DNA of 14,391 nucleotides from a virus (IMGVR_UViG_3300033994_001334:64001-78391), one strand, 5' to 3'. Numbered from the stretch's first letter, positions 7,170 through 14,391 are shown. Notes: generated by a model from the sequence alone, not told the origin. Program-made: numbers and translations.

Positions 7170-7574
7170 TTATATTCCATACCACTCCAAGATTTCTTCA
7201 CCCGATTTAATATCCCGAAGTGTTTTACCAAAACCATCCACGTTTTGATTTTCTTTATATGGATATGAGGAGTTACAAAAGGATGATGAATGAACAAGAT
7301 AATTTAACCCATTAAAGAGTCTTATTATTTTATAATCGGGGTCATCGTCAATGAAATTCATATTAATCATTTTCAATACCGGTGCGGGAAGTTCATTTAA
7401 TCTATTTTTCGGTATTCTATAAATTCCAGTACCATTTGACCATTTTGTGAATATGTAAGTATTTTTGGGAATATCAACAATTGCAAATACACCAATACCA
7501 TGAACCTCTGATAAACGAAGTTCGGTTAGGATATTATGTTTTAAATGGTAAATTACCTCATCCGTTATATCCAT
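7170..7574 (-). CDS. SET-domain protein (putative protein lysine methyltransferase)
   Basis: SEVHGIGVFA (motif I), YLVHSS..CN (variant of the NHS motif), RDIKSGEEILEWY (terminal GEE..Y motif). Confidence 0.8.
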   Translation of the reverse strand: MDITDEVIYHLKHNILTELRLSEVHGIGVFAIVDIPKNTYIFTKWSNGTGIYRIPKNRLNELPAPVLKMINMNFIDDDPDYKIIRLFNGLNYLVHSSSFCNSSYPYKENQNVDGFGKTLRDIKSGEEILEWYGI

Positions 7575-7768: not shown

Positions 7769-8302
7769 CTACAAATTCTTAAATTGTTTAAATCTGTAGT
7801 TGAGGACAGCATTAAACCCGAATCCAGGATTAATTGCATAATTGTAGTTTGTTGTAAGCCTAAATTGGAGATTATTACTTTGGGATAATTTTATTCCCTT
7901 ATAATAAAAAGATAATGACATTTGTGGAACAAAATCGGTTTTTGGATAATAACCCATTAAACCAATAGGAGATATTACCACATCAAATTTTTCAAATCTA
8001 CGACCGAAATCAAGTTGGGTTGTTAATATTGAATTTGGAATTTGTCTTTCTTGCATTTGACCTTGTCGTGACATAACCAAACAATAAGAACCATTAAAGT
8101 GAATTATTAATGGGTATTTATTATCGGTGATTTCTATTTCACCCGTCATCCCTATAATGGGACTACGTAAGAAACTGTTTACTCCACCCATACTTGATAA
8201 CCATACCTTTCTGTACGTTGTGTCTAAAGGGGTCGGTTGACCACTTATTGGTGATACACCAATAATAAGGAATGTGATAAGTAAAAGAACTGAAAGTTTC
8301 AT
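7769..8302 (-). CDS. Secreted protein, candidate small outer-membrane beta-barrel
   Basis: Signal peptide MKLSVLLLITFLIIGVSPISG followed by Q; alternating hydrophobic strands; terminal GFGFNAVLNYRF. Start may be 8308. Confidence 0.6.
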   Translation of the reverse strand: MKLSVLLLITFLIIGVSPISGQPTPLDTTYRKVWLSSMGGVNSFLRSPIIGMTGEIEITDNKYPLIIHFNGSYCLVMSRQGQMQERQIPNSILTTQLDFGRRFEKFDVVISPIGLMGYYPKTDFVPQMSLSFYYKGIKLSQSNNLQFRLTTNYNYAINPGFGFNAVLNYRFKQFKNL

Positions 8303-8305
8303 ATA

Positions 8306-8313
8306 CATAAATA
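8306..8313 (-). promoter_or_regulatory. TATTTAT upstream motif
   Basis: Sense TATTTATG, 3 nt before ATG 8302. Confidence 0.55.
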
Positions 8314-8340
8314 TCTAATGGACATCCTATTTTATATAAA

Positions 8341-8463
8341 TTTTCCCAAAAATTTTTATTTTGAAATCGACCACCTTTTCCCTTTTTTAGGTTTTTTCCC
8401 AAAAATTTTTATTTTTTATATAGGGGGTCTTTCAGATAAATCGACTTTTTCCAAAAAAATTCT
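8341..8463. repeat. Phased A/T-tract direct repeats
   Basis: TTTTCCCAAAAATTTTTATTTT at 8341-8362 and 8394-8415; degenerate third copy from 8447. Period 53 bp. Confidence 0.75.
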
Positions 8464-8512
8464 GGAAAAATTTCAGTTACGGCATTGTCCCCCCTATACA
8501 GACATCGAAATA

Positions 8513-8570
8513 GGGGGTATATAAGGGGGGATACGGGAGGGGGGGTATCATAGGGGGGTGGTGTAGGGGG
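8513..8570 (+). other. G-tract run fitting the G-quadruplex pattern
   Basis: G5-N7-G6-N4-G3-N1-G7-N7-G6-N7-G5. Confidence 0.75.
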
Positions 8571-8574
8571 TAGG

Positions 8575-8594
8575 TTGCCCCTCTATAAGTTTTT
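8575..8594 (+). repeat. Intergenic module A, right arm
   Basis: TTGCCCCTCTATAAGTTTTT; a degenerate left arm may lie at about 8466-8484 (AAAAATTTCAGTTACGGCA). Confidence 0.65.
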
Positions 8595-8636
8595 CACCCG
8601 TCAGGTTCATCAGGGTTTCCCGTTGTGTTGGTATAG

Positions 8637-8702
8637 TGTGGATAACTTTATAGAAGAAATATAAAATAGTTCTTGTTATATTCAAAACTAATCTTATCTT
8701 TG
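8637..8702 (+). promoter_or_regulatory. DnaA box plus Bacteroidota-type sigma70 promoter (cassette 1)
   Basis: TGTGGATAA 8637-8645; TTG 8673-8675; TATCTTTG 8695-8702. Confidence 0.8.
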
Positions 8703-8737
8703 TACCCGTTGTAACAAACCAAACAACATTAAATAAA

Positions 8738-9307
8738 ATGACTACAATAGTAAAACAACAAGTAGAAGTAACACCAACTGAAATGGTGGAAATCCTTAAA
8801 GGAGTAGAGGGTAACCCTAATGTACCTTTCGTAAATTGTAAAATGAAAACATTATATAGTGATGTTTTAAAAACTTGTAAAAGTGACGGAACAATTAACC
8901 CATACTTTAAACAAATTTACAAAGTGAGTAGTAAGAATTACAAGTTAGTTACCAACTACGAACAAAGGGTAAAAAACAATTTAATTAAAGAGGGTAAAGA
9001 CCCCAATAGTTTTGTTGTCGAAAGTCCGAAAGGAAAAAAACATATTTCAAAATCGTGTTTAACCGATAAGGAAACCGAAACAAAACTATATGTTATGTTG
9101 GAGTGGTTTCCCGAAATTAAAGGAACAACTGAATACGAATTTGAGGGTAATAGTATTGACAAACAAATTTTTGAAAAGTGGATTTCAACAAGTGAGAGTT
9201 CAAATAAAAAACAAGGTTTGGATAGAGAGATACACCCAATAACCCCACTAATCTCAAATATAATATCAATTTCAGTTAATGGAATGGTTTATATCATTAA
9301 GGAATAA
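8738..9307 (+). CDS. Phage hypothetical protein (cassette 1)
   Basis: 189-aa ORF between a promoter and a terminator; no Ala. Confidence 0.9.
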   Translation: MTTIVKQQVEVTPTEMVEILKGVEGNPNVPFVNCKMKTLYSDVLKTCKSDGTINPYFKQIYKVSSKNYKLVTNYEQRVKNNLIKEGKDPNSFVVESPKGKKHISKSCLTDKETETKLYVMLEWFPEIKGTTEYEFEGNSIDKQIFEKWISTSESSNKKQGLDREIHPITPLISNIISISVNGMVYIIKE

Positions 9308-9326
9308 AAACCCCTTAAAACTAATT

Positions 9327-9360
9327 AAAACACTATCCGAAAGGGTGGTGTTTTTTTTTT
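9327..9360 (+). terminator. Intrinsic terminator, cassette 1
   Basis: AACACTATCC-GAAA-GGGTGGTGTT plus T-run. Confidence 0.85.
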
Positions 9361-9411
9361 GTCCAAAAATTTGTGGATTGAATTTTTTTGGTGGGACCAT
9401 GTTCCATCCGT

Positions 9412-9473
9412 AAAATAGAGGGGCAATTTTGTTTTTGGTGGGTTCTATTTGGGTTTGCCCCTTTAAAAGTTTT
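9412..9473. repeat. Intergenic module B, inverted arms
   Basis: AAAATAGAGGGGCAA (9412-9426), 28-nt spacer, TTGCCCCTTTAAAAGTTTT (9455-9473). Confidence 0.8.
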
Positions 9474-9516
9474 CATGGTCCCTGAGTTTCCGACTCAAGT
9501 CCTTCAGTTCACATTG

Positions 9517-9563
9517 TGTGGAAAACTTTATCTTGTTTTATAATAGTATCCATGTTATATTTG
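9517..9563 (+). promoter_or_regulatory. DnaA box plus promoter (cassette 2)
   Basis: TGTGGAAAA 9517-9525 (fits TTWTNCACA); TTG 9533-9535; TATATTTG 9556-9563. Confidence 0.8.
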
Positions 9564-9586
9564 TATTCAGTTAAACCAAACATATT

Positions 9587-9880
9587 ATGTATACTAAAGA
9601 AGAAATTCAACACAACCTCTCCACTAATCCTAAATGGATTGAAAGAAGTCTTATCGTATTGTACCAAAGACAAACCCAAGATGAACAACAAGTCGGTGGT
9701 ACTTTTGTTCAAAACAATGTAGGTTTTAATAGTTCCGATAGTCGTTACCTCTCTTATTGTAGTAGGTGGTTACTACAAGGTAAACACCTTGACAATGGAC
9801 ACCTTGAAAAGTGTGGTGGGAAATTAAAGAAGTATTGGAAACAGATTGAAAGTATAATCAAGGAAAAGGGGAACAATTAG
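9587..9880 (+). CDS. Phage hypothetical protein with RQTxDE and NNVGFN motifs (cassette 2)
   Basis: 97 aa between promoter and terminator. Motif pattern recalled from widespread phage hypotheticals; function unknown. Confidence 0.88.
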   Translation: MYTKEEIQHNLSTNPKWIERSLIVLYQRQTQDEQQVGGTFVQNNVGFNSSDSRYLSYCSRWLLQGKHLDNGHLEKCGGKLKKYWKQIESIIKEKGNN

Positions 9881-9895
9881 TTCTCCTTTTTTTTT
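9864..9895 (+). terminator. Intrinsic terminator, cassette 2
   Basis: AAAAGGGGAAC-AATTA-GTTCTCCTTTT plus T-run; overlaps the stop codon. Confidence 0.8.
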
Positions 9896-9933
9896 GACCA
9901 CAGATTTTAGAATACCACCCGGTCTTCCATCCG

Positions 9934-9998
9934 GAAAATAATGGGGCAATCGGTATGACAAATGTTGGTATCGGTATGACATTTGCCGACATAAATCC
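9934..9998. repeat. Intergenic module C, inverted arms
   Basis: GAAAATAATGGGGCAA (9934-9949), 33-nt spacer holding two TCGGTATGACA, TTGCCGACATAAATCC (9983-9998). Confidence 0.8.
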
Positions 9999-10019
9999 AA
10001 ACCGTGACGACAGGTGAAG

Positions 10020-10086
10020 GTAACATTACTAAATAAAAAAAAATAAAAAGAAATTCTTGTTTTATTCAGAAATTATATTACCTTTG
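10020..10086 (+). promoter_or_regulatory. A-tract class promoter (cassette 3)
   Basis: GTAACATTAC 10020-10029; A-tract; TTG 10057-10059; TACCTTTG 10079-10086. Confidence 0.8.
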
Positions 10087-10120
10087 TGTCGTTGTAATAA
10101 ACCAAACAACATTTAAAAAA

Positions 10121-10324
10121 ATGAAAAATCTATTTATCTACTTAACATTTATTGTTATTACTTTCTTTTCGGTGTATGGTGCATTTACTATGGACATACC
10201 AACCGACAACCAAATTGGGATGTTATTTTTTGGTTCATTGTCTTTTAGTGTTTTGTTAATGGTAACCTTTTATGATATTCGTATGTTTATCAAAAATAGA
10301 AAACCAAGACCTCAAACTTTCTAA
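10121..10324 (+). CDS. Small two-TM membrane protein (cassette 3)
   Basis: 67 aa, two hydrophobic stretches, basic C-terminal tail. Confidence 0.8.
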   Translation: MKNLFIYLTFIVITFFSVYGAFTMDIPTDNQIGMLFFGSLSFSVLLMVTFYDIRMFIKNRKPRPQTF

Positions 10325-10343
10325 TCTTTCATTTTGTATCTTA

Positions 10344-10374
10344 AAGACCTCATCAGAAATGGTGGGGTTTTTTT
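10344..10374 (+). terminator. Intrinsic terminator, cassette 3
   Basis: ACCTCATCA-GAAA-TGGTGGGGT plus T-run. Confidence 0.8.
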
Positions 10375-10416
10375 GTGTCTGAAGTTTTTAGAATACCACC
10401 CGTGTCCTTCCATCCG

Positions 10417-10596
10417 GAAATTAAATCGGCAAAATCCATATCTGAAGATTTAGTAACATTACTTTCTGTGTCCATGAAAAAGATTTATCGGGGCAACGAC
10501 ACCAAATTATGTGGGGGTTTAATGTGAAATTGCCCCATTAAAAGTTTTCCTCTCAGGGTTCACGGTCAGGACGAATTGTGGTGGATTCGTATGACA
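10417..10596. repeat. Intergenic module D
   Basis: Left arms 10417-10432 and 10481-10496, right arm 10530-10548, CGTATGACA 10588-10596. Confidence 0.8.
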
Positions 10597-10602
10597 AAAA
10601 AA

Positions 10603-10648
10603 TGTGGATAACTTTTTCTTGTTTGTAAAAGTATTTGTATTATATTTG
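10603..10648 (+). promoter_or_regulatory. DnaA box plus promoter (cassette 4)
   Basis: TGTGGATAA 10603-10611; TTG 10619-10621; TATATTTG 10641-10648. Confidence 0.8.
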
Positions 10649-10670
10649 TACTCGTTAAACCAAACATAAA

Positions 10671-10853
10671 ATGAAAGATTTATTAATTACAAAAGTCGTA
10701 ATACTCATAGTAGTATTATTATTAATCACCCTCACAAGTTGTGGGACTTATCAAGTCGTGGGAAGTACAACCTATAACAAAGAGTATAGGACTGATTCAA
10801 CAATCACAAGAGTTTATTATGATTCAACAACAATTAGAATGAGTAAAAATTAA
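10671..10853 (+). CDS. Small putative lipoprotein (cassette 4)
   Basis: Hydrophobic VVILIVVLLLITL followed by lipobox LTSC(24)GTY. Confidence 0.75.
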   Translation: MKDLLITKVVILIVVLLLITLTSCGTYQVVGSTTYNKEYRTDSTITRVYYDSTTIRMSKN

Positions 10854-10857
10854 AATT

Positions 10858-11043
10858 ATGAAAACAATATTTGTATTATTCGTGGATAATAAACCAAAAG
10901 GTATCCTATCTGAAATTCAGTTGGAAAATTATAGTGGTCGTAGTTGGTGGACGACATTTAAAAAAATGTTAGTTCCAACCGAAAAAATAGATGACCTAAA
11001 CATTGGTAACGTAGAAAAATACCTTACCTTATACGGAATTTAA
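10858..11043 (+). CDS. Small hypothetical protein (cassette 4, second gene)
   Basis: 61 aa, starts 4 nt after the previous stop, followed by a terminator. Confidence 0.75.
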   Translation: MKTIFVLFVDNKPKGILSEIQLENYSGRSWWTTFKKMLVPTEKIDDLNIGNVEKYLTLYGI

Positions 11044-11063
11044 TTGAAGTTGGTTTGTGAATT

Positions 11064-11094
11064 AAGGGGTAGAGAAATCTACTCCTTTTTTTTT
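11064..11094 (+). terminator. Intrinsic terminator, cassette 4
   Basis: AAGGGGTAGA-GAAA-TCTACTCCTT plus T-run. Confidence 0.85.
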
Positions 11095-11154
11095 GTTTAA
11101 AAAATTTGGGTTCGGAAGAAAAGTTCGGATGTTTGTGGGGACAGGTCCGTCGGG

Positions 11155-11258
11155 GAAATTAACTCGGCAAACCAGGTAAATACGTTGGGTACGTATGACA
11201 CTTGCCCCATTAAAATTTTTCGTCCGAAGGTTCTGAGATGGTCGGGATTCGTATGACA
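11155..11258. repeat. Intergenic module E
   Basis: Left arm 11155-11170, CGTATGACA 11192-11200, right arm 11202-11220, CGTATGACA 11250-11258. Confidence 0.8.
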
Positions 11259-11262
11259 AGAA

Positions 11263-11308
11263 TGTGGATAACTTTATTTGTTTTATATTCTAAACTAACC
11301 TACATTTG
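11263..11308 (+). promoter_or_regulatory. DnaA box plus promoter (cassette 5)
   Basis: TGTGGATAA 11263-11271; TTTG 11277-11280; TACATTTG 11301-11308. Confidence 0.82.
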
Positions 11309-11333
11309 TATCGTTAAACTAAAAAAATATAAA

Positions 11334-12122
11334 ATGAAAATTAAAGAAGAGTCGTTACTTACCATTGTAAATGAAAAAAACTACATTAGTCATCACGTTG
11401 GTCATATAATGAAATCAATGACCATAGACAAAGTGAATGAAAATGTCTACGTTAGTAAAATGAAATTATTTGAAACTAATGTAAATTGGAGGAGGTTAGT
11501 ATTTTCTGAAAAATCAAAGAAAAATTTAGAAAATTACACAATACCAAAAGATATTCGTGTTGAGGTGTTGAGGTCGTTACCTAATAGAAACGACATCATT
11601 TTAATTGATGAATATAATTGTATAAAATATATAAAAACCGATAATGAATTAATAGTATCATTTCATTATACAAATAAAACACATTTAAATGATTATGGTG
11701 CACCCGTACTTTATATGTTTTATTTTCAAGTTAATTTGATAACCGGTAAAATTTCATCCGACCAAATGGATTTTGAAAGTAATAAAATGGTGGATTATGA
11801 AATGTTAATCGAAAAGTTTTATAGTCGTTTTTTGGTGGTGATTACATATTTGGAATTGACCGAAGTAACATTAAATGTAATTGAAGGTGGTAAATCGTTT
11901 GGTACTTGGAATAGTGGTAAGATTAAAAACAAAACAAAAAATAGAATTATAATGGTTAATACAAATTGGAATGTAGAAACCATTAGTCTAAATAGTTTTT
12001 CAGTTCGTGGACATTGGAGATTACAACCTTGTGGTGTTGGTAGAAGTCAGTTTAAATATGTTTACATTAAACCATATGAAAAAGGTTTGATTAGAAGATT
12101 ACCACAAAAAGAATTGGTTTAA
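11334..12122 (+). CDS. Phage protein with C-terminal VRGHWR motif, 262 aa (cassette 5)
   Basis: Start moved from 11238 to 11334 because the track extension runs through the promoter. C-terminal SVRGHWRLQPCG...YIKPYEKG. Confidence 0.88.
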   Translation: MKIKEESLLTIVNEKNYISHHVGHIMKSMTIDKVNENVYVSKMKLFETNVNWRRLVFSEKSKKNLENYTIPKDIRVEVLRSLPNRNDIILIDEYNCIKYIKTDNELIVSFHYTNKTHLNDYGAPVLYMFYFQVNLITGKISSDQMDFESNKMVDYEMLIEKFYSRFLVVITYLELTEVTLNVIEGGKSFGTWNSGKIKNKTKNRIIMVNTNWNVETISLNSFSVRGHWRLQPCGVGRSQFKYVYIKPYEKGLIRRLPQKELV

Positions 12123-12127
12123 CAACG

Positions 12128-12161
12128 AAAATTTCCTCAACGAAAGTTGGGGATTTTTTTT
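12128..12161 (+). terminator. Intrinsic terminator, cassette 5
   Basis: TCCTCAAC-GAAA-GTTGGGGA plus T-run. Confidence 0.85.
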
Positions 12162-12205
12162 GCGCTAACGCTGCTCTGGTTTGCGCAACAGCTGCTGGTT
12201 CAGGT

Positions 12206-12289
12206 GGAATTAGTTCGGCAACGTATGACACTTGCCCCATTAAAATTTTTCCTCTCAGGGTTCGGGAATCAGGGTGGACTCGTATGACA
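12206..12289. repeat. Intergenic module F
   Basis: Left arm 12206-12221, CGTATGACA 12222-12230, right arm 12232-12250, CGTATGACA 12281-12289. Confidence 0.8.
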
Positions 12290-12293
12290 ATAA

Positions 12294-12339
12294 TGTGGAT
12301 AACTTTATTTTTTTTATAATGGTATATGTGGTATATTTG
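12294..12339 (+). promoter_or_regulatory. DnaA box plus promoter (cassette 6)
   Basis: TGTGGATAA 12294-12302; -33 element degenerate; TATATTTG 12332-12339. Confidence 0.75.
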
Positions 12340-12367
12340 TATCTCAAACCAAAAATAAATAAATCAA

Positions 12368-12583
12368 ATGAAAGTAGTATCATCTCGTATCACCGACCAA
12401 CCAAAAAGTTTCTTTGACCCAATCCCACAAGTGTTCGTAACTTTAGAAAATGGGGAAGAACAATTCTTATTCGATTACTATCCCGATGAAATCAGTTTCA
12501 CACCTAATGAGTTCGTGGGTTTGACACTTGATGAGTGTAGACACTTGAAGTTTGTAAAAGATAAAAGATACCTAACAAGTTGA
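12368..12583 (+). CDS. Small phage hypothetical protein with YPDEISF motif (cassette 6)
   Basis: 71 aa directly behind a promoter. Confidence 0.85.
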   Translation: MKVVSSRITDQPKSFFDPIPQVFVTLENGEEQFLFDYYPDEISFTPNEFVGLTLDECRHLKFVKDKRYLTS

Positions 12584-12614
12584 TGTCATGGAAAAACTAT
12601 CGTGTAAAGAAAGA

Positions 12615-12695
12615 ATGAAAGAGTTATTGGGAATACTAATTGTTTTACCGATACTAATTTATTACGGAATCCGATTTTTAATAAGGGGTAGATAA
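12615..12695 (+). CDS. Possible 26-aa single-TM peptide (35 aa if started at 12588)
   Basis: Manual translation MKELLGILIVLPILIYYGIRFLIRGR; fills the space up to the terminator. Confidence 0.45.
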   Translation: MKELLGILIVLPILIYYGIRFLIRGR

Positions 12696-12713
12696 TTCTA
12701 CTCCTTTTTTTTT
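12683..12713 (+). terminator. Intrinsic terminator, cassette 6
   Basis: AAGGGGTAGA-TAAT-TCTACTCCTT plus T-run; same stem as cassette 4. Confidence 0.85.
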
Positions 12714-12763
12714 GTCCAAAAATTTGTGGTTTGAAAAAAATCGAGGAGATGTTGGGTGAATCC

Positions 12764-12865
12764 GAATTTAACTCGGCAATCGTATAACACCTTATACTCG
12801 TATGACGATTGCCCCATTAAAAATTTTCGGGGACGAGCTCTGAGATGGTCTGAATTCGTATGACA
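12764..12865. repeat. Intergenic module G
   Basis: Left arm 12764-12779, CGTATAACA 12781-12789, CGTATGACG 12799-12807, right arm 12809-12827, CGTATGACA 12857-12865. Confidence 0.8.
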
Positions 12866-12869
12866 AGAA

Positions 12870-12915
12870 TGTGGATAACTTTATTTGTTTTATATTCCAA
12901 ACTAAACTACATTTG
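12870..12915 (+). promoter_or_regulatory. DnaA box plus promoter (cassette 7)
   Basis: TGTGGATAA 12870-12878; TTTG 12884-12887; TACATTTG 12908-12915. Confidence 0.82.
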
Positions 12916-12948
12916 TATCGTTGTAATAAACCAAACAACACCAATTAT

Positions 12949-13395
12949 ATGAAATTCAATACAAAATCATTAGACCACAAATTCTATGGTAAGACCATTA
13001 GAACATTTACTGAATTAGAAAGTAAATTATTTGAACTTGACCTATTAATGTCAATGACCTTTATGGTTAGTAAAATGGGTGAAGAAACCAAAGAATTAAA
13101 AGAAACCTTAAACGATATGGGTAAGGTTCGTTTTGTTATTTCTTGTGAACTTTTGGGTTACTCTGAAACTCACATTTCAATCATTCCATTTGAAACAATA
13201 ATGGAAAAAATTGAAGAGAGTGATTATGGGTTCACTAAATTTTTACAAGACCACCAAGAAAATTCTAAATTAATTCCAAAAGAAGATGTGGAGATGATTG
13301 AAAAGTTGTTAAGGAACGAACTTTCAAAGAAAGAAGATGTAGTCGGTCAGATGTCTGATAGTGTTAGACAACAACCGAGTTATATGTGGAACTAA
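12949..13395 (+). CDS. Helical hypothetical protein, 148 aa (cassette 7)
   Basis: Start moved from 12871 to 12949 because the track extension runs through the promoter. Confidence 0.85.
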   Translation: MKFNTKSLDHKFYGKTIRTFTELESKLFELDLLMSMTFMVSKMGEETKELKETLNDMGKVRFVISCELLGYSETHISIIPFETIMEKIEESDYGFTKFLQDHQENSKLIPKEDVEMIEKLLRNELSKKEDVVGQMSDSVRQQPSYMWN

Positions 13396-13423
13396 TTTTG
13401 TCTATCATAGTTGTTCTATGACT

Positions 13424-13453
13424 AACCCTCACCCGAAATGGTGGGGGTTTTTT
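13424..13453 (+). terminator. Intrinsic terminator, cassette 7
   Basis: AACCCTCACC-CGAAAT-GGTGGGGGTT plus T-run. Confidence 0.8.
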
Positions 13454-13492
13454 ATTTCCCGTATCTTGAGTCGGAGATGTTCGTCCCTTCCC

Positions 13493-13611
13493 AAAACTAA
13501 GTCGGCAACGTATGACACTTGAGTCGGGAATTCCGTCGTTACCGTCCGGGACAGATGAAATTAGGTTTGCAACGTATGACATTTGCCGAACTAATTTCCG
13601 GATTACGACGG
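13493..13611. repeat. Intergenic module H
   Basis: Left arms 13493-13508 and 13557-13572, CGTATGACA 13509-13517 and 13573-13581, right arm 13583-13598. Confidence 0.8.
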
Positions 13612-13623
13612 TTCTGAGAAAAA

Positions 13624-13685
13624 GTAACGTTACAAAAAAAAATAAAAAGAAATTCTTGTTTTATTCAGAAATTGTATTACCTTTG
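13624..13685 (+). promoter_or_regulatory. A-tract class promoter (cassette 8)
   Basis: GTAACGTTAC 13624-13633; A-tract; TTG 13656-13658; TACCTTTG 13678-13685. Confidence 0.8.
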
Positions 13686-13713
13686 TTCTTGTTAAACCAA
13701 TAGAAAAAATAAA

Positions 13714-14076
13714 ATGAAAAAAGGAATTTTAATCGATGTTCATAACAGAACAATCACAGAAGTAGAAGTAACCAAAGATGAAAATGGTTCTCAATTACAA
13801 TCAATGTACAATCACATTAAATGTGGAATTGTGGAGTGTGTTGGTTTTGATGAAAAAAATGATGTGTGGGTTGATGAAGAGGGGTTATTAACTTTAACAC
13901 CCGATTCGATGTTTTTTAAATTTGAGGGGTATCCCGATTTTTTATGTGGTAATGGTTTGGTTATGGGTTTTGATAATGAAACGGGAGAAAGTGTTGATAC
14001 GACCTTAACTATTGATGAAGTAAAATCAATGGTAGAATTTCGTACACTAAACGAAGTAAGAAGACAGTTAGTTTAA
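13714..14076 (+). CDS. DUF3846-like protein (cassette 8)
   Basis: L..MY.HI.C..VE.V.....D.WVDEEGL...LCGNGLV matches my recollection of the DUF3846 (N/D)EEG pattern. Confidence 0.65.
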   Translation: MKKGILIDVHNRTITEVEVTKDENGSQLQSMYNHIKCGIVECVGFDEKNDVWVDEEGLLTLTPDSMFFKFEGYPDFLCGNGLVMGFDNETGESVDTTLTIDEVKSMVEFRTLNEVRRQLV

Positions 14077-14095
14077 TGTAATGTTTGGTTCATGG

Positions 14096-14128
14096 AAATT
14101 TCCTCACCGAAAGGTGGGGATTTTTTTT
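14096..14128 (+). terminator. Intrinsic terminator, cassette 8
   Basis: TCCTCACC-GAAA-GGTGGGGA plus T-run; near twin of cassette 5. Confidence 0.85.
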
Positions 14129-14171
14129 GCGCTAAAATTACTGGTGTTTGCGCATGGTGACTAGTCAGAAT

Positions 14172-14250
14172 GGAATTAGTTCGGCAACATTTAAATATGG
14201 TGTTGTTGCCCTTTTAATTTTCCTGGAGGACCTGTCGACTTCGACTCAAG
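14172..14250. repeat. Intergenic module I
   Basis: Left arm 14172-14187 (identical to module F), right arm TTGCCCTTTTAATTTTC from 14206, CGACTCAAG 14242-14250. Confidence 0.78.
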
Positions 14251-14267
14251 ATTCTATGTAAATATAA

Positions 14268-14313
14268 TGTGGATAACTTTTATTTTTTTATACCGAAAAT
14301 TAAACTACATTTG
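14268..14313 (+). promoter_or_regulatory. DnaA box plus promoter (cassette 9)
   Basis: TGTGGATAA 14268-14276; -33 element degenerate; TACATTTG 14306-14313. Confidence 0.75.
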
Positions 14314-14347
14314 TATCGTTGTAATAAACCAAACAACATTTAATTTT

Positions 14348-14391
14348 ATGAACATAATTAAAACATTAGAGTATTCAATGGACTACTCACA
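14348..14391 (+). CDS. 5' fragment of the cassette 9 gene
   Basis: ATG after the conserved leader; MNIIKTLEYSMDYS is open to the window end. Confidence 0.7.
   Translation, partial: MNIIKTLEYSMDYS

Follow-up and report, generated by a model that had tools for sequence, protein, structure and literature searches.

Avoidance of short words relative to base composition is widespread in prokaryotic viruses and is read as escape from a sequence-reading nuclease, typically of a restriction-modification system (Rusinov et al., 2018; PMC6286503). In Autographiviridae, experiments showed that only restriction-modification motifs in the leading, first-injected region decide sensitivity (Martinez-Cazorla et al., 2025; PMC12455610), the avoidance being limited to a region of early, variable, anti-defence-type genes while the rest of the genome keeps the motif. 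T7 and T5 provide the classical cases. The GpC dinucleotide is itself a battleground, as phages carry C5-methyltransferases specific for GpC or GpCY, working with TET and glycosyltransferases (Burke et al., 2021; PMC8256090), with M.CviPI of chloroviruses as a further example. At the RNA level, vertebrate-infecting viruses are depleted in CpG, including at synonymous sites, with the CpG-binding RNA sensor ZAP as one accepted cause (discussed in PMC8844275), while GCU-free mRNAs of E. coli escape the mRNA interferase MqsR. Finally, host-takeover modules of large lytic phages, such as the SPO1 terminal-redundancy module and the T5 pre-early region, are arrays of many small early genes, each with its own strong host-type promoter and terminator.

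The window, the whole stretch of DNA analysed, spans 14,391 nucleotides (IMGVR_UViG_3300033994_001334:64001-78391) and is the last 14.4 kb of a 78,391-base fragment (hereafter the record) of a ~310-kb freshwater jumbo phage, probably of a Bacteroidota host. It is not a whole small genome with two arms, as the preliminary description had framed it. That description reported a near-total loss of GpC and an essentially alanine-free early proteome at positions 8738-14076, and this observation is confirmed. The stretch is present in Logan contigs of 20 lake or freshwater metagenome runs from 20 studies, and is therefore not a one-off assembly artefact. The features of the block are as follows, with promoters, terminators and transcription units being predictions from sequence.

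8309..8737 (no strand): divergent intergenic region, the left edge of the purged block, holding the first promoter (-7 box at 8695) and one TTGCC word (GpC at 8577).
8738..9307 (+): early gene 1, 189 aa, 0 Ala, 0 GpC, no family found.
9587..9880 (+): early gene 2, 97 aa, 0 Ala, matching phrog_21015 (function unknown).
10121..10324 (+): early gene 3, 67 aa, 1 Ala (GCA; GpC at 10181).
10671..11043 (+): early genes 4 and 5 (60 and 61 aa, 10671-10853 and 10858-11043) in one cassette, 0 Ala.
11334..12122 (+): early gene 6, 262 aa, 1 Ala (GpC at 11700), AcrVA2-like, an anti-CRISPR-like family; the start is placed behind the promoter at 11301, not at 11238.
12134..12161 (+): example of an intrinsic terminator whose stem and T-run contain no GpC, others lying at 9327-9360, 10343-10374, 11064-11094, 12683-12713, 13424-13453 and 14101-14128.
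12162..12240 (no strand): example of "zone A", the ~100-nt stretch directly after the T-run that holds the GpCs of a spacer, here a GCGC-rich element (8 GpC in 33 nt) followed by CGGCAA and TTGCCCC arms; a second copy lies at 14129-14213.
12241..12367 (+): example of "zone B", the GpC-free stretch between the arms and the ATG, containing CGTATGACA boxes, a TGTGGATAA (DnaA-box-like) word, a -33 TTG and the -7 box TATATTTG at 12332.
12368..12583 (+): early gene 7, 71 aa, 0 Ala, a widely conserved phage protein of unknown function, used here as the anchor to find relatives.
12949..13395 (+): early gene 8, 148 aa, 0 Ala; the start is placed behind the promoter at 12908, not at 12871.
13714..14076 (+): early gene 9, 120 aa, 0 Ala, DUF3846 (PF12957).
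14348..14391 (+): start of a tenth cassette gene, cut off by the end of the record, beyond which the block probably continues.

Gene starts were each placed behind a Bacteroidetes-type promoter, with a -7 box TAnnTTTG and an upstream TTG/TTTG. Nine such boxes (TATATTTG, TACATTTG, TACCTTTG, TATCTTTG) lie 17-35 nt upstream of the nine ATGs, in agreement with the sigma-A promoter consensus of this phylum, and their use moves two starts, to 11334 and 12949. The result is nine proteins of 1075 aa in total with 2 Ala, exactly as first described, with P(<=2 Ala) = 6e-15 at the 3.6% Ala of the rest of the record. The assignment of the 262-aa protein rests on precomputed PF26125 hits for about half of 107 homologs, including a 98%-identical one, while the nearest Atlas cluster carries the family on 16% of its members and a direct hmmscan search against Pfam gave no hit.

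Positions 8738-14076 contain 27 GpC against 136 expected from base composition (odds ratio 0.20), with CpG at 0.96. The earlier count of 34 GpC in 8575-14391 is exact, and 19 of these are the GC of GGCAA/TTGCC-type arms, one being a TTGCAA variant. The only two coding GpCs lie at 10181 (previously given as 10161) and 11700, both in GGTGCA and both in Ala codons. At the codon level, NGC accounts for 0 of 101 NGY codons, G|C junctions at synonymous NNR codons for 0 of 56, and Met or Trp followed by C for 0 of 49, while AGT, TGT and GGT stay common. This supports the earlier proposal that the pressure acts on nucleic acid and not on tRNA-Ala. The boundary is sharp, at window positions ~8000-8500, with per-kb odds ratios of 0.11-0.17 to the right and 0.3-1.0 over the other 72 kb of the record. 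That the left part is not purged, as previously stated, also holds; however, the whole record is depleted at synonymous sites about 6-fold, with an overall GpC odds ratio of ~0.6 record-wide, so that the block is the extreme of a genome-wide pressure. In the block the purge also takes Ala codons, Met|C and Trp|C junctions, and terminator stems. Synonymous GpC is 0 in the block against ~6.8 expected at the depletion of the rest of the record, indicating stronger pressure there and not only weaker protein constraint. Phage tRNA genes are also GpC-poor (0.59-0.72, against 0.96 in 38 bacterial tRNAs). For comparison, 80 bacterial loci lie at 0.82-1.76 and 32 Bacteroidota loci at 0.89-1.33, which excludes host mimicry for the genomes sampled.

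The purge extends to related metagenome contigs, where blocks reach 13 kb (25 genes, 2688 aa, 1 Ala), and it is shared by a large clade of lake phages while being specific to lineages among relatives. Pooled over six purged blocks, NGC/(NGC+NGT) is 5/1059 against 47% C at other NNY codons, NNG before C is 4/650 against 40% otherwise, Met or Trp before C is 2/503, and Ala is 22 of 11,969 codons. Synonymous GpC is thus at 0.5-0.6% where 40-47% would be expected, a depletion of about 100-fold.

One possibility is that no special pressure exists in the block, and that young or de novo ORFans simply mirror a GpC-poor background under relaxed protein constraint. Most block genes indeed have no known family, and Ala-poor small ORFs also occur elsewhere in the record and in another genome, G174. 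However, two block genes have homologs with Ala in non-depleted phages, and so lost Ala rather than never having it. In the 71-aa family, 33 of 34 homologs in depleted genomes have 0 Ala and one has 1, while all 24 in non-depleted genomes have 1-8. In the AcrVA2-like family, 88 of 107 homologs have <=2 Ala in ~265 aa, down to 40% identity. One of the two is 93% identical between lineages and is therefore constrained. In G174, 12 of 25 ORFs with <=1 GpC cluster in 3% of the genome. Together with the deeper synonymous purge, the ortholog comparison largely refutes this explanation, which is considered very unlikely.

A second possibility, raised as the alternative in the preliminary description, is mutational decay, in which GpC cytosines are methylated by a phage or host enzyme, or attacked by a GC-context deaminase, and decay to GpT/ApC, with unconstrained early ORFans drifting to a GpC-free, Ala-free state while functional words are kept by selection. 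The record-wide synonymous depletion, the roughly uniform NGCN contexts and a layout of small GpC islands next to promoters in a GpC desert, resembling vertebrate CpG islands, would fit this view. Block-wide, Val (+1.8 points) and Thr (+1.5) rise by about the size of the Ala deficit, and GT and AC odds ratios are 1.19 and 1.15. Conversely, the conserved Ala columns of the 71-aa family, whose replacements had been proposed beforehand as a discriminating test, became Ser/Cys, Glu/Asp, Pro and Cys, which need transversions, rather than Val or Thr, although over two families some Val is also seen. No PF00145 C5-methyltransferase was found in 30 related records, two of them 92-93% complete. No TET or TGT was found in these relatives either, although the control of the TET search also gave no hit, which makes that absence weak. 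Relatives carry one PF01555 methyltransferase of undetermined specificity with a TSPPY motif, which is typical of N4-cytosine enzymes. The ~100-fold deficit far exceeds the ~5-fold CpG deficit that 10-15-fold hypermutability produces in vertebrates, block edges are sharp, neighbouring genes in the relative G002 differ in Ala content, and the sampled Bacteroidota show no GpC deficit. Selection therefore fits better, and decay is regarded as unlikely.

The distribution of the surviving GpCs bears on the nature of this selection. Predicted transcription units, running from promoter to terminator T-run, total 3892 nt and hold 2 GpC against 85.5 expected (odds ratio 0.02), while spacers total 1920 nt and hold 32 against 67.4 (0.47, the genome average). 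A cruder split of 14 related loci gives 0.01-0.07 for units and 0.24-0.42 for spacers. Terminator stems are built without any GpC, and in two cassettes a GCGC-rich element starts at the first base after the T-run. However, zone B, the ~110-150 nt between the last GpC word and the -7 box, should be untranscribed yet is also nearly GpC-free (1 GpC against roughly 13 expected at the genome-average depletion, by estimate), which fits a DNA-level pressure or an unrecognised upstream start. In addition, nearly all spacer GpCs lie in repeated, presumably functional words, so that their survival may only reflect constraint, and in the most purged relative non-motif spacer GpCs are also rare. As GpC is its own complement, no strand test can separate RNA from DNA.

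These repeated words have suggested a further reading, namely that GpC is reserved as a signal for a regulator, nickase or methyltransferase of the phage's own, acting upstream of each early promoter, with stray GpCs purged because off-target action is harmful. In four lineages the word differs yet always carries the only GpCs (CGGCAA/TTGCCC here, TTTGGCG/TTGGCAA in G002, ACAGCT in the relative L202 and AACTGC/GCAGTT in L188), and the words often form inverted pairs, like operators. Against this, several other repeated words in the same spacers have no GpC, a 12-16-bp word of this composition has by estimate roughly even odds of holding a GpC by chance, and neither the avoidance across the rest of the genome nor that in tRNA genes is explained. 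This reading is likewise improbable.

The interpretation first proposed, that the block is the first DNA exposed in the cell and has shed GpC to avoid restriction-type cleavage or another GC-requiring DNA sensor until protection is expressed, is only partly supported. The precedents outlined above, the AcrVA2-like gene, the sharp edges of the block (on both sides in L202), and the GpC-free zone B speak for it. However, the record bridges the two ends of a 310,691-bp relative, so the map is circular, and in 288-324-kb contigs the block lies internally, so that a fixed first-entering end is not shown. Every spacer keeps 1-10 GpCs, 20-38 per block, including AGCT in all spacers of the fully purged L202 and GCGC clusters in this window, and the block would still be cut by any enzyme reading GC or short GC words. 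The rest of the genome keeps thousands of GpCs, no single 4-mer context is singled out, and no restriction enzyme, or nuclease, with a 2-bp site is known to us, whereas RNases and RNA sensors with 2-3-nt specificity are established (MqsR at GCU; ZAP at CpG). DNA-level escape thus remains the closest rival but is considered rather unlikely.

The block is best explained as an array of early, host-RNA-polymerase-driven cassettes of small genes, at least one of them anti-defence-like, which have been under very strong selection to contain no GpC in what is predicted to be transcribed. The analysis itself demonstrates that the purge is at the nucleic-acid level and specific to the dinucleotide, that it is ~100-fold at synonymous sites in purged blocks, that it is strong enough to remove alanine from orthologs that carry it in other phages, that it is shared by a large clade of lake phages, and that surviving spacer GpCs lie almost entirely in repeated words in a ~100-nt zone just after each predicted terminator. 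What is inferred from this is that GpC is a liability in the first-made transcripts, or in the DNA while it is being transcribed; the cause would be an as yet unidentified nuclease or sensor with GC-level specificity acting early in infection. An RNA-level agent is slightly favoured, for instance a GC-cutting ribonuclease or RNA sensor, such as a host abortive-infection or toxin-type RNase, or the phage's own host-shutoff RNase, although no GC-specific RNase is known to us in Bacteroidota or their phages, no candidate was identified, and in G002 some cassettes with the same promoter type keep normal Ala content. A per-site, quantitative cost of that kind would also explain the milder genome-wide avoidance. 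The probability that selection at the nucleic-acid level is the cause is put at about 0.7, while the RNA or transcription-unit version remains tentative, at about 0.4.

Compared with the described systems, the block shares with the SPO1 and T5 modules an array of many small early genes in cassettes, each with its own predicted host-type promoter and terminator, although no dinucleotide purge or amino-acid loss is known to us for those modules. In contrast to GpC-methylating phages, which show that GpC cytosines need protection, the sites here are removed and not modified, a passive counterpart, with no C5-methyltransferase or TET found in this phage group. With regard to MqsR, the word is 2 nt rather than a triplet, the scale is tens of genes, no RNase is known, and residual Ala codons elsewhere in the record show no bias against GCU or GCA. 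As in the CpG depletion of vertebrate-infecting viruses, a single self-complementary dinucleotide is purged, including at synonymous sites, but it is GpC, the setting is bacterial, the depletion is far deeper and no sensor has been identified. Relative to genome-wide restriction-site avoidance, no cognate system or site is known and all 16 NGCN contexts are affected about equally. With the leading-region avoidance of Martinez-Cazorla et al. (PMC12455610) the block shares under-representation that is stronger in the early region than elsewhere, although its early entry is not shown; here, however, a dinucleotide is removed and not a 4-8-bp site, motif-bearing words are kept in each spacer, and the removal goes as far as deleting an amino acid almost completely from 9 to ~25 consecutive proteins.

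The 14,391 bases constitute the last part (64,001-78,391) of a 78,391-base IMG/VR virus record rated 25% complete, and its layout matches that of G174, a 310,691-bp relative rated 93% complete. The record (1-62026) aligns to G174 286,426-308,692 and then to 506-30,707, bridging the two ends of that contig, so that the map of the ~310-kb genome closes on itself, which means either permuted ends or terminal repeats. The record carries 25 tRNA genes and a protein with a type IX secretion sorting domain, and the purged block occurs in contigs of 20 lake or freshwater metagenome runs from 20 studies, while no RNA data set was found to contain it. The preliminary description had pictured a small genome with two arms, which is wrong, although its sequence observation is not. 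A megablast search of the window against cultured phages gave no match, as did tblastn searches of the 294-aa ORF and of a 71-aa protein of the block against the same set. A search for loci related to the 294-aa ORF returned no relative, and an exact promoter-word scan of viral contigs and a 34-mer scan of metagenome contigs were likewise without match. PHROG and Pfam scans left most of the block genes unnamed.

The observation of a near-total loss of GpC and alanine is confirmed. Positions 8738-14076 of the window hold 27 GpC against 136 expected (odds ratio 0.20), with CpG at 0.96. Per-kb odds ratios are 0.11-0.17 over the last 6.4 kb, apart from one kb that holds a GC-rich spacer element, while the other 72 kb of the record lie at 0.3-1.0. 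The step is located at ~8000-8500, where leftward genes meet rightward genes. The only coding GpCs are at 10181 (originally given as 10161) and 11700, both in GGTGCA. Each gene sits behind a predicted Bacteroidetes-type promoter with a -7 box TAnnTTTG, which puts two of the starts at 11334 and 12949. With these starts the block has nine proteins, 1075 aa and 2 Ala, exactly the numbers first reported, with P = 6e-15 at the 3.6% Ala of the rest of the record. Features of the window that are relevant here are as follows.

7170-7574, minus strand: a 134-aa protein with a SET domain (PF00856, E 1.2e-06, above the curated cut-off), just left of the block.
8525-8580: an unusual G-run-rich stretch (several GGGGGG-type runs) in the divergent intergenic region at the left edge of the block.
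8640-8660, 9520-9540, 10600-10620, 11262-11275, 12293-12306, 12871-12884 and 14265-14278: a TGTGGATAA word (DnaA-box-like) at a fixed distance upstream of the -33/-7 promoter in most cassettes; two ORF calls (11238 and 12871) start inside or upstream of this promoter region and are too long.
11334-12122, plus strand: a 262-aa protein, a possible anti-CRISPR-like early gene product (AcrVA2-like).
12368-12583: the 71-aa protein through which relatives were found.

The pressure is genome-wide and the block is its extreme, as is evident when the 72 kb outside the block are compared with the block itself.

Table. Codon-level measures outside and inside the block.
Measure; outside the block; in the block
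NGC among NGY codons; 3.7% (other NNY pairs, 20-43% C); 0 of 101
NNG among NNR codons when the next base is C; 4.3% (19.6% otherwise, Fisher 1e-43); 0 of 56
Met or Trp followed by C; not depleted; 0 of 49
Ala; 3.6%; 2 of 1075

Residual GpCs outside the block are essentially Ala codons. Synonymous GpC in the block is 0, against about 6.8 expected even at the depletion of the rest of the record, and the block is therefore under stronger pressure, not only under weaker protein constraint. Given the GpC count, the 16 NGCN contexts are roughly uniform (0.58-1.44), indicating that the dinucleotide is the target rather than a particular 4-mer. An explanation by tRNA-Ala shortage or by an anticodon nuclease was rejected, because AGT, TGT and GGT, which are read by GCN anticodons, stay abundant and G|C junctions are purged too. 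An MqsR-like GCU/GCA specificity was also rejected, since residual Ala codons show ordinary third-base usage. Mimicry of the host is ruled out for the genomes sampled, in which 80 bacterial loci have GpC odds ratios of 0.82-1.76 and 32 Bacteroidota loci have 0.89-1.33. The depletion is, in addition, specific to lineages: relatives found through a glycosyltransferase fall into GpC-depleted (0.44-0.63), undepleted (~1.0) and CpG-depleted groups. The phage contigs of loci L110, L111, L119 and L121, which share the glycosyltransferase, are CpG-depleted (0.30-0.47) but not GpC-depleted, and sister lineages therefore carry different dinucleotide signatures.

Relatives show the same blocks, often in a more extreme form. 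The 71-aa protein has 93 relatives in metagenome contigs, and many of these loci hold long stretches with per-kb odds ratios of 0.0-0.1. For the large metagenome contigs (324 kb and 288 kb), IMG/VR equivalents were used in record searches. In locus L202, part of a 324,478-bp contig, the purged stretch is 13 kb long with sharp edges on both sides, holding 25 rightward genes, 2688 aa and 1 Ala, and almost every GpC sits in one repeated spacer word containing ACAGCT. Locus L188 is alike, with the word AACTGC/GCAGTT, whereas relative G002 has TTTGGCG/TTGGCAA and is mosaic, in that some cassettes keep normal Ala content. In G174, 12 of the 25 ORFs with <=1 GpC lie in 41.3-50.5 kb, which is 3% of the genome. 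A low-GpC stretch in relative G005 at 32-40 kb was considered and rejected as an early block: it arises from a 2940-aa protein (G005:30676-39498, minus strand, loci L126-L127) made of Gly/Val/Thr-rich repeats, with only 26 Ala, and is unrelated to the early block.

Table. Counts pooled over six purged blocks (about 12,000 codons).
Measure; observed; comparison
NGC/(NGC+NGT); 5/1059; 47% C at other NNY codons
NNG before C; 4/650; 40% when the next base is not C
Met or Trp before C; 2/503; -
Ala; 22/11,969; -

Orthologs of block proteins have lost alanine. In the 71-aa family, 33 of 34 distinct homologs in depleted genomes have 0 Ala and 0-1 GpC, one having 1 Ala, while all 24 homologs in undepleted genomes have 1-8 Ala and 3-19 GpC. 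Some lineages (L192, L189, L199, L208) have an 86-aa version of this protein with a Cys/His-bearing C-terminal extension. The conserved Ala columns became Ser/Cys, Glu/Asp, Pro and Cys, which, by the criterion set beforehand in the preliminary description, speaks for selection and not for deamination. The 262-aa protein belongs to a family of 107 metagenomic homologs, about half of which carry a precomputed AcrVA2-like (PF26125) hit, although a separate Pfam scan gave no hit. Of the 107, 88 have <=2 Ala in ~265 aa, down to 40% identity. Its one well-conserved Ala column became Pro or Ser, while hydrophobic columns are Val or Ile. Block-wide, Val and Thr are raised by about the size of the Ala deficit, and the replacement spectrum is therefore mixed.

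Each cassette reads in a constant order. The gene is followed by a predicted hairpin terminator, whose stem has no GpC, and a T-run. Next comes zone A, about 100 nt, which holds all GpCs of the spacer, with GCGC-rich elements that start at the first base after the T-run at 12162 and 14129, then CGGCAA and TTGCCCC arms. Zone B, about 150 nt and GpC-free, harbours CGTATGACA boxes, a TGTGGATAA word, a -33 TTG and the -7 box, and is followed by the ATG. Predicted transcription units (3892 nt) hold 2 GpC against 85.5 expected, while spacers (1920 nt) hold 32 against 67.4. A cruder split of 14 related loci gives 0.01-0.07 for units and 0.24-0.42 for spacers. Phage tRNA genes are also GpC-poor, at 0.72 and 0.59 against 0.96 in 38 bacterial tRNAs.

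Methylation-driven decay is disfavoured by these data. No C5-methyltransferase was found in 30 related records, including G174 and a second near-complete relative, G175 (92-93% complete), and no TGT was found. Searches for TET (PF12851) and for a T7-type RNA polymerase (PF00940) returned nothing, but neither gave a hit in any control genome, so these blanks are weak. The replacements at conserved Ala sites need transversions, and a ~100-fold synonymous deficit is far beyond the ~5-fold deficit that CpG hypermutability gives in vertebrates. One caveat remains, in that the near-complete relatives encode one PF01555 DNA methyltransferase (L288:1447-2304, minus strand, equivalent to G174:106063-106920) with a TSPPY motif, which is typical of N4-cytosine rather than N6-adenine enzymes, whose hits to NCBIfam adenine methyltransferases fall below their cut-offs and whose specificity is unknown. 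A cluster (L291, G174:101805-105446, and L288:3-842) comprises a 430-aa ThyA-like protein with an insertion, a HAD phosphatase, a NUMOD3 protein and two GlnII-type glutamine-synthetase-like genes, and could represent nucleotide metabolism or a base-modification pathway. The ThyA-like gene of the relatives scores as an ordinary thymidylate synthase.

Selection at the nucleic-acid level is therefore the best reading (probability about 0.7). The counts themselves show the purge, its depth at synonymous sites and the loss of alanine from orthologs, whereas selection as the cause, its action on transcripts and any responsible activity are inferred. The interpretation first offered, an escape of first-entering DNA from a DNA-level defence, is only partly supported. 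It has a good experimental precedent, in which only motifs in the leading region decide sensitivity to a Type I system (PMC12455610), and phage methyltransferases specific for GpC show that this dinucleotide matters in phage-host conflict (PMC8256090). However, every spacer keeps GpCs, including AGCT or GCGC, no 4-mer stands out, the rest of the genome keeps thousands of GpCs, and a fixed leading end is not shown. The near-perfect match of the purge with the predicted promoter-to-terminator units, the GpC-free terminator stems, the reappearance of GpC right after the T-run and the graded genome-wide avoidance fit a per-site cost on transcripts better. This RNA version is held tentatively (about 0.4), with the GpC-free zone B and the location of spacer GpCs in repeated words counting against it, and the DNA version is considered less likely still. 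As GpC is its own complement, no strand test can decide between the two.

A further possibility, held with low confidence, is that freshwater Bacteroidota, or their jumbo phages, possess a nuclease or sensor that reads the bare dinucleotide GpC in early transcripts or in transcribed DNA. It would be a bacterial counterpart of CpG sensing by ZAP, which a whole clade of phages would have answered by rewriting dozens of early genes without GpC, and so without alanine. The finding shows how far nucleic-acid-level selection can override protein composition, gives natural alanine-free versions of protein families, including an AcrVA2-like one, and points to an unidentified activity with GC-level specificity in lake bacteria or their phages. 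GpC-free blocks could serve as a purely compositional marker for early or anti-defence modules in uncultured jumbo phages, and they offer a handle for finding the responsible defence system by co-occurrence.

No report of GpC purging or of alanine-free phage proteins was found in the literature searched, where one apparent "GpC" match concerned the lambda protein gpC. Word avoidance by phages, on the other hand, is known, and the present case is classed with it, the open possibility being a truly new GpC-reading activity. It differs from that known avoidance in that a dinucleotide is avoided so strictly that one of the twenty amino acids all but disappears, with up to ~25 neighbouring proteins affected in relatives and the state persisting across homologs that share only 40% identity.
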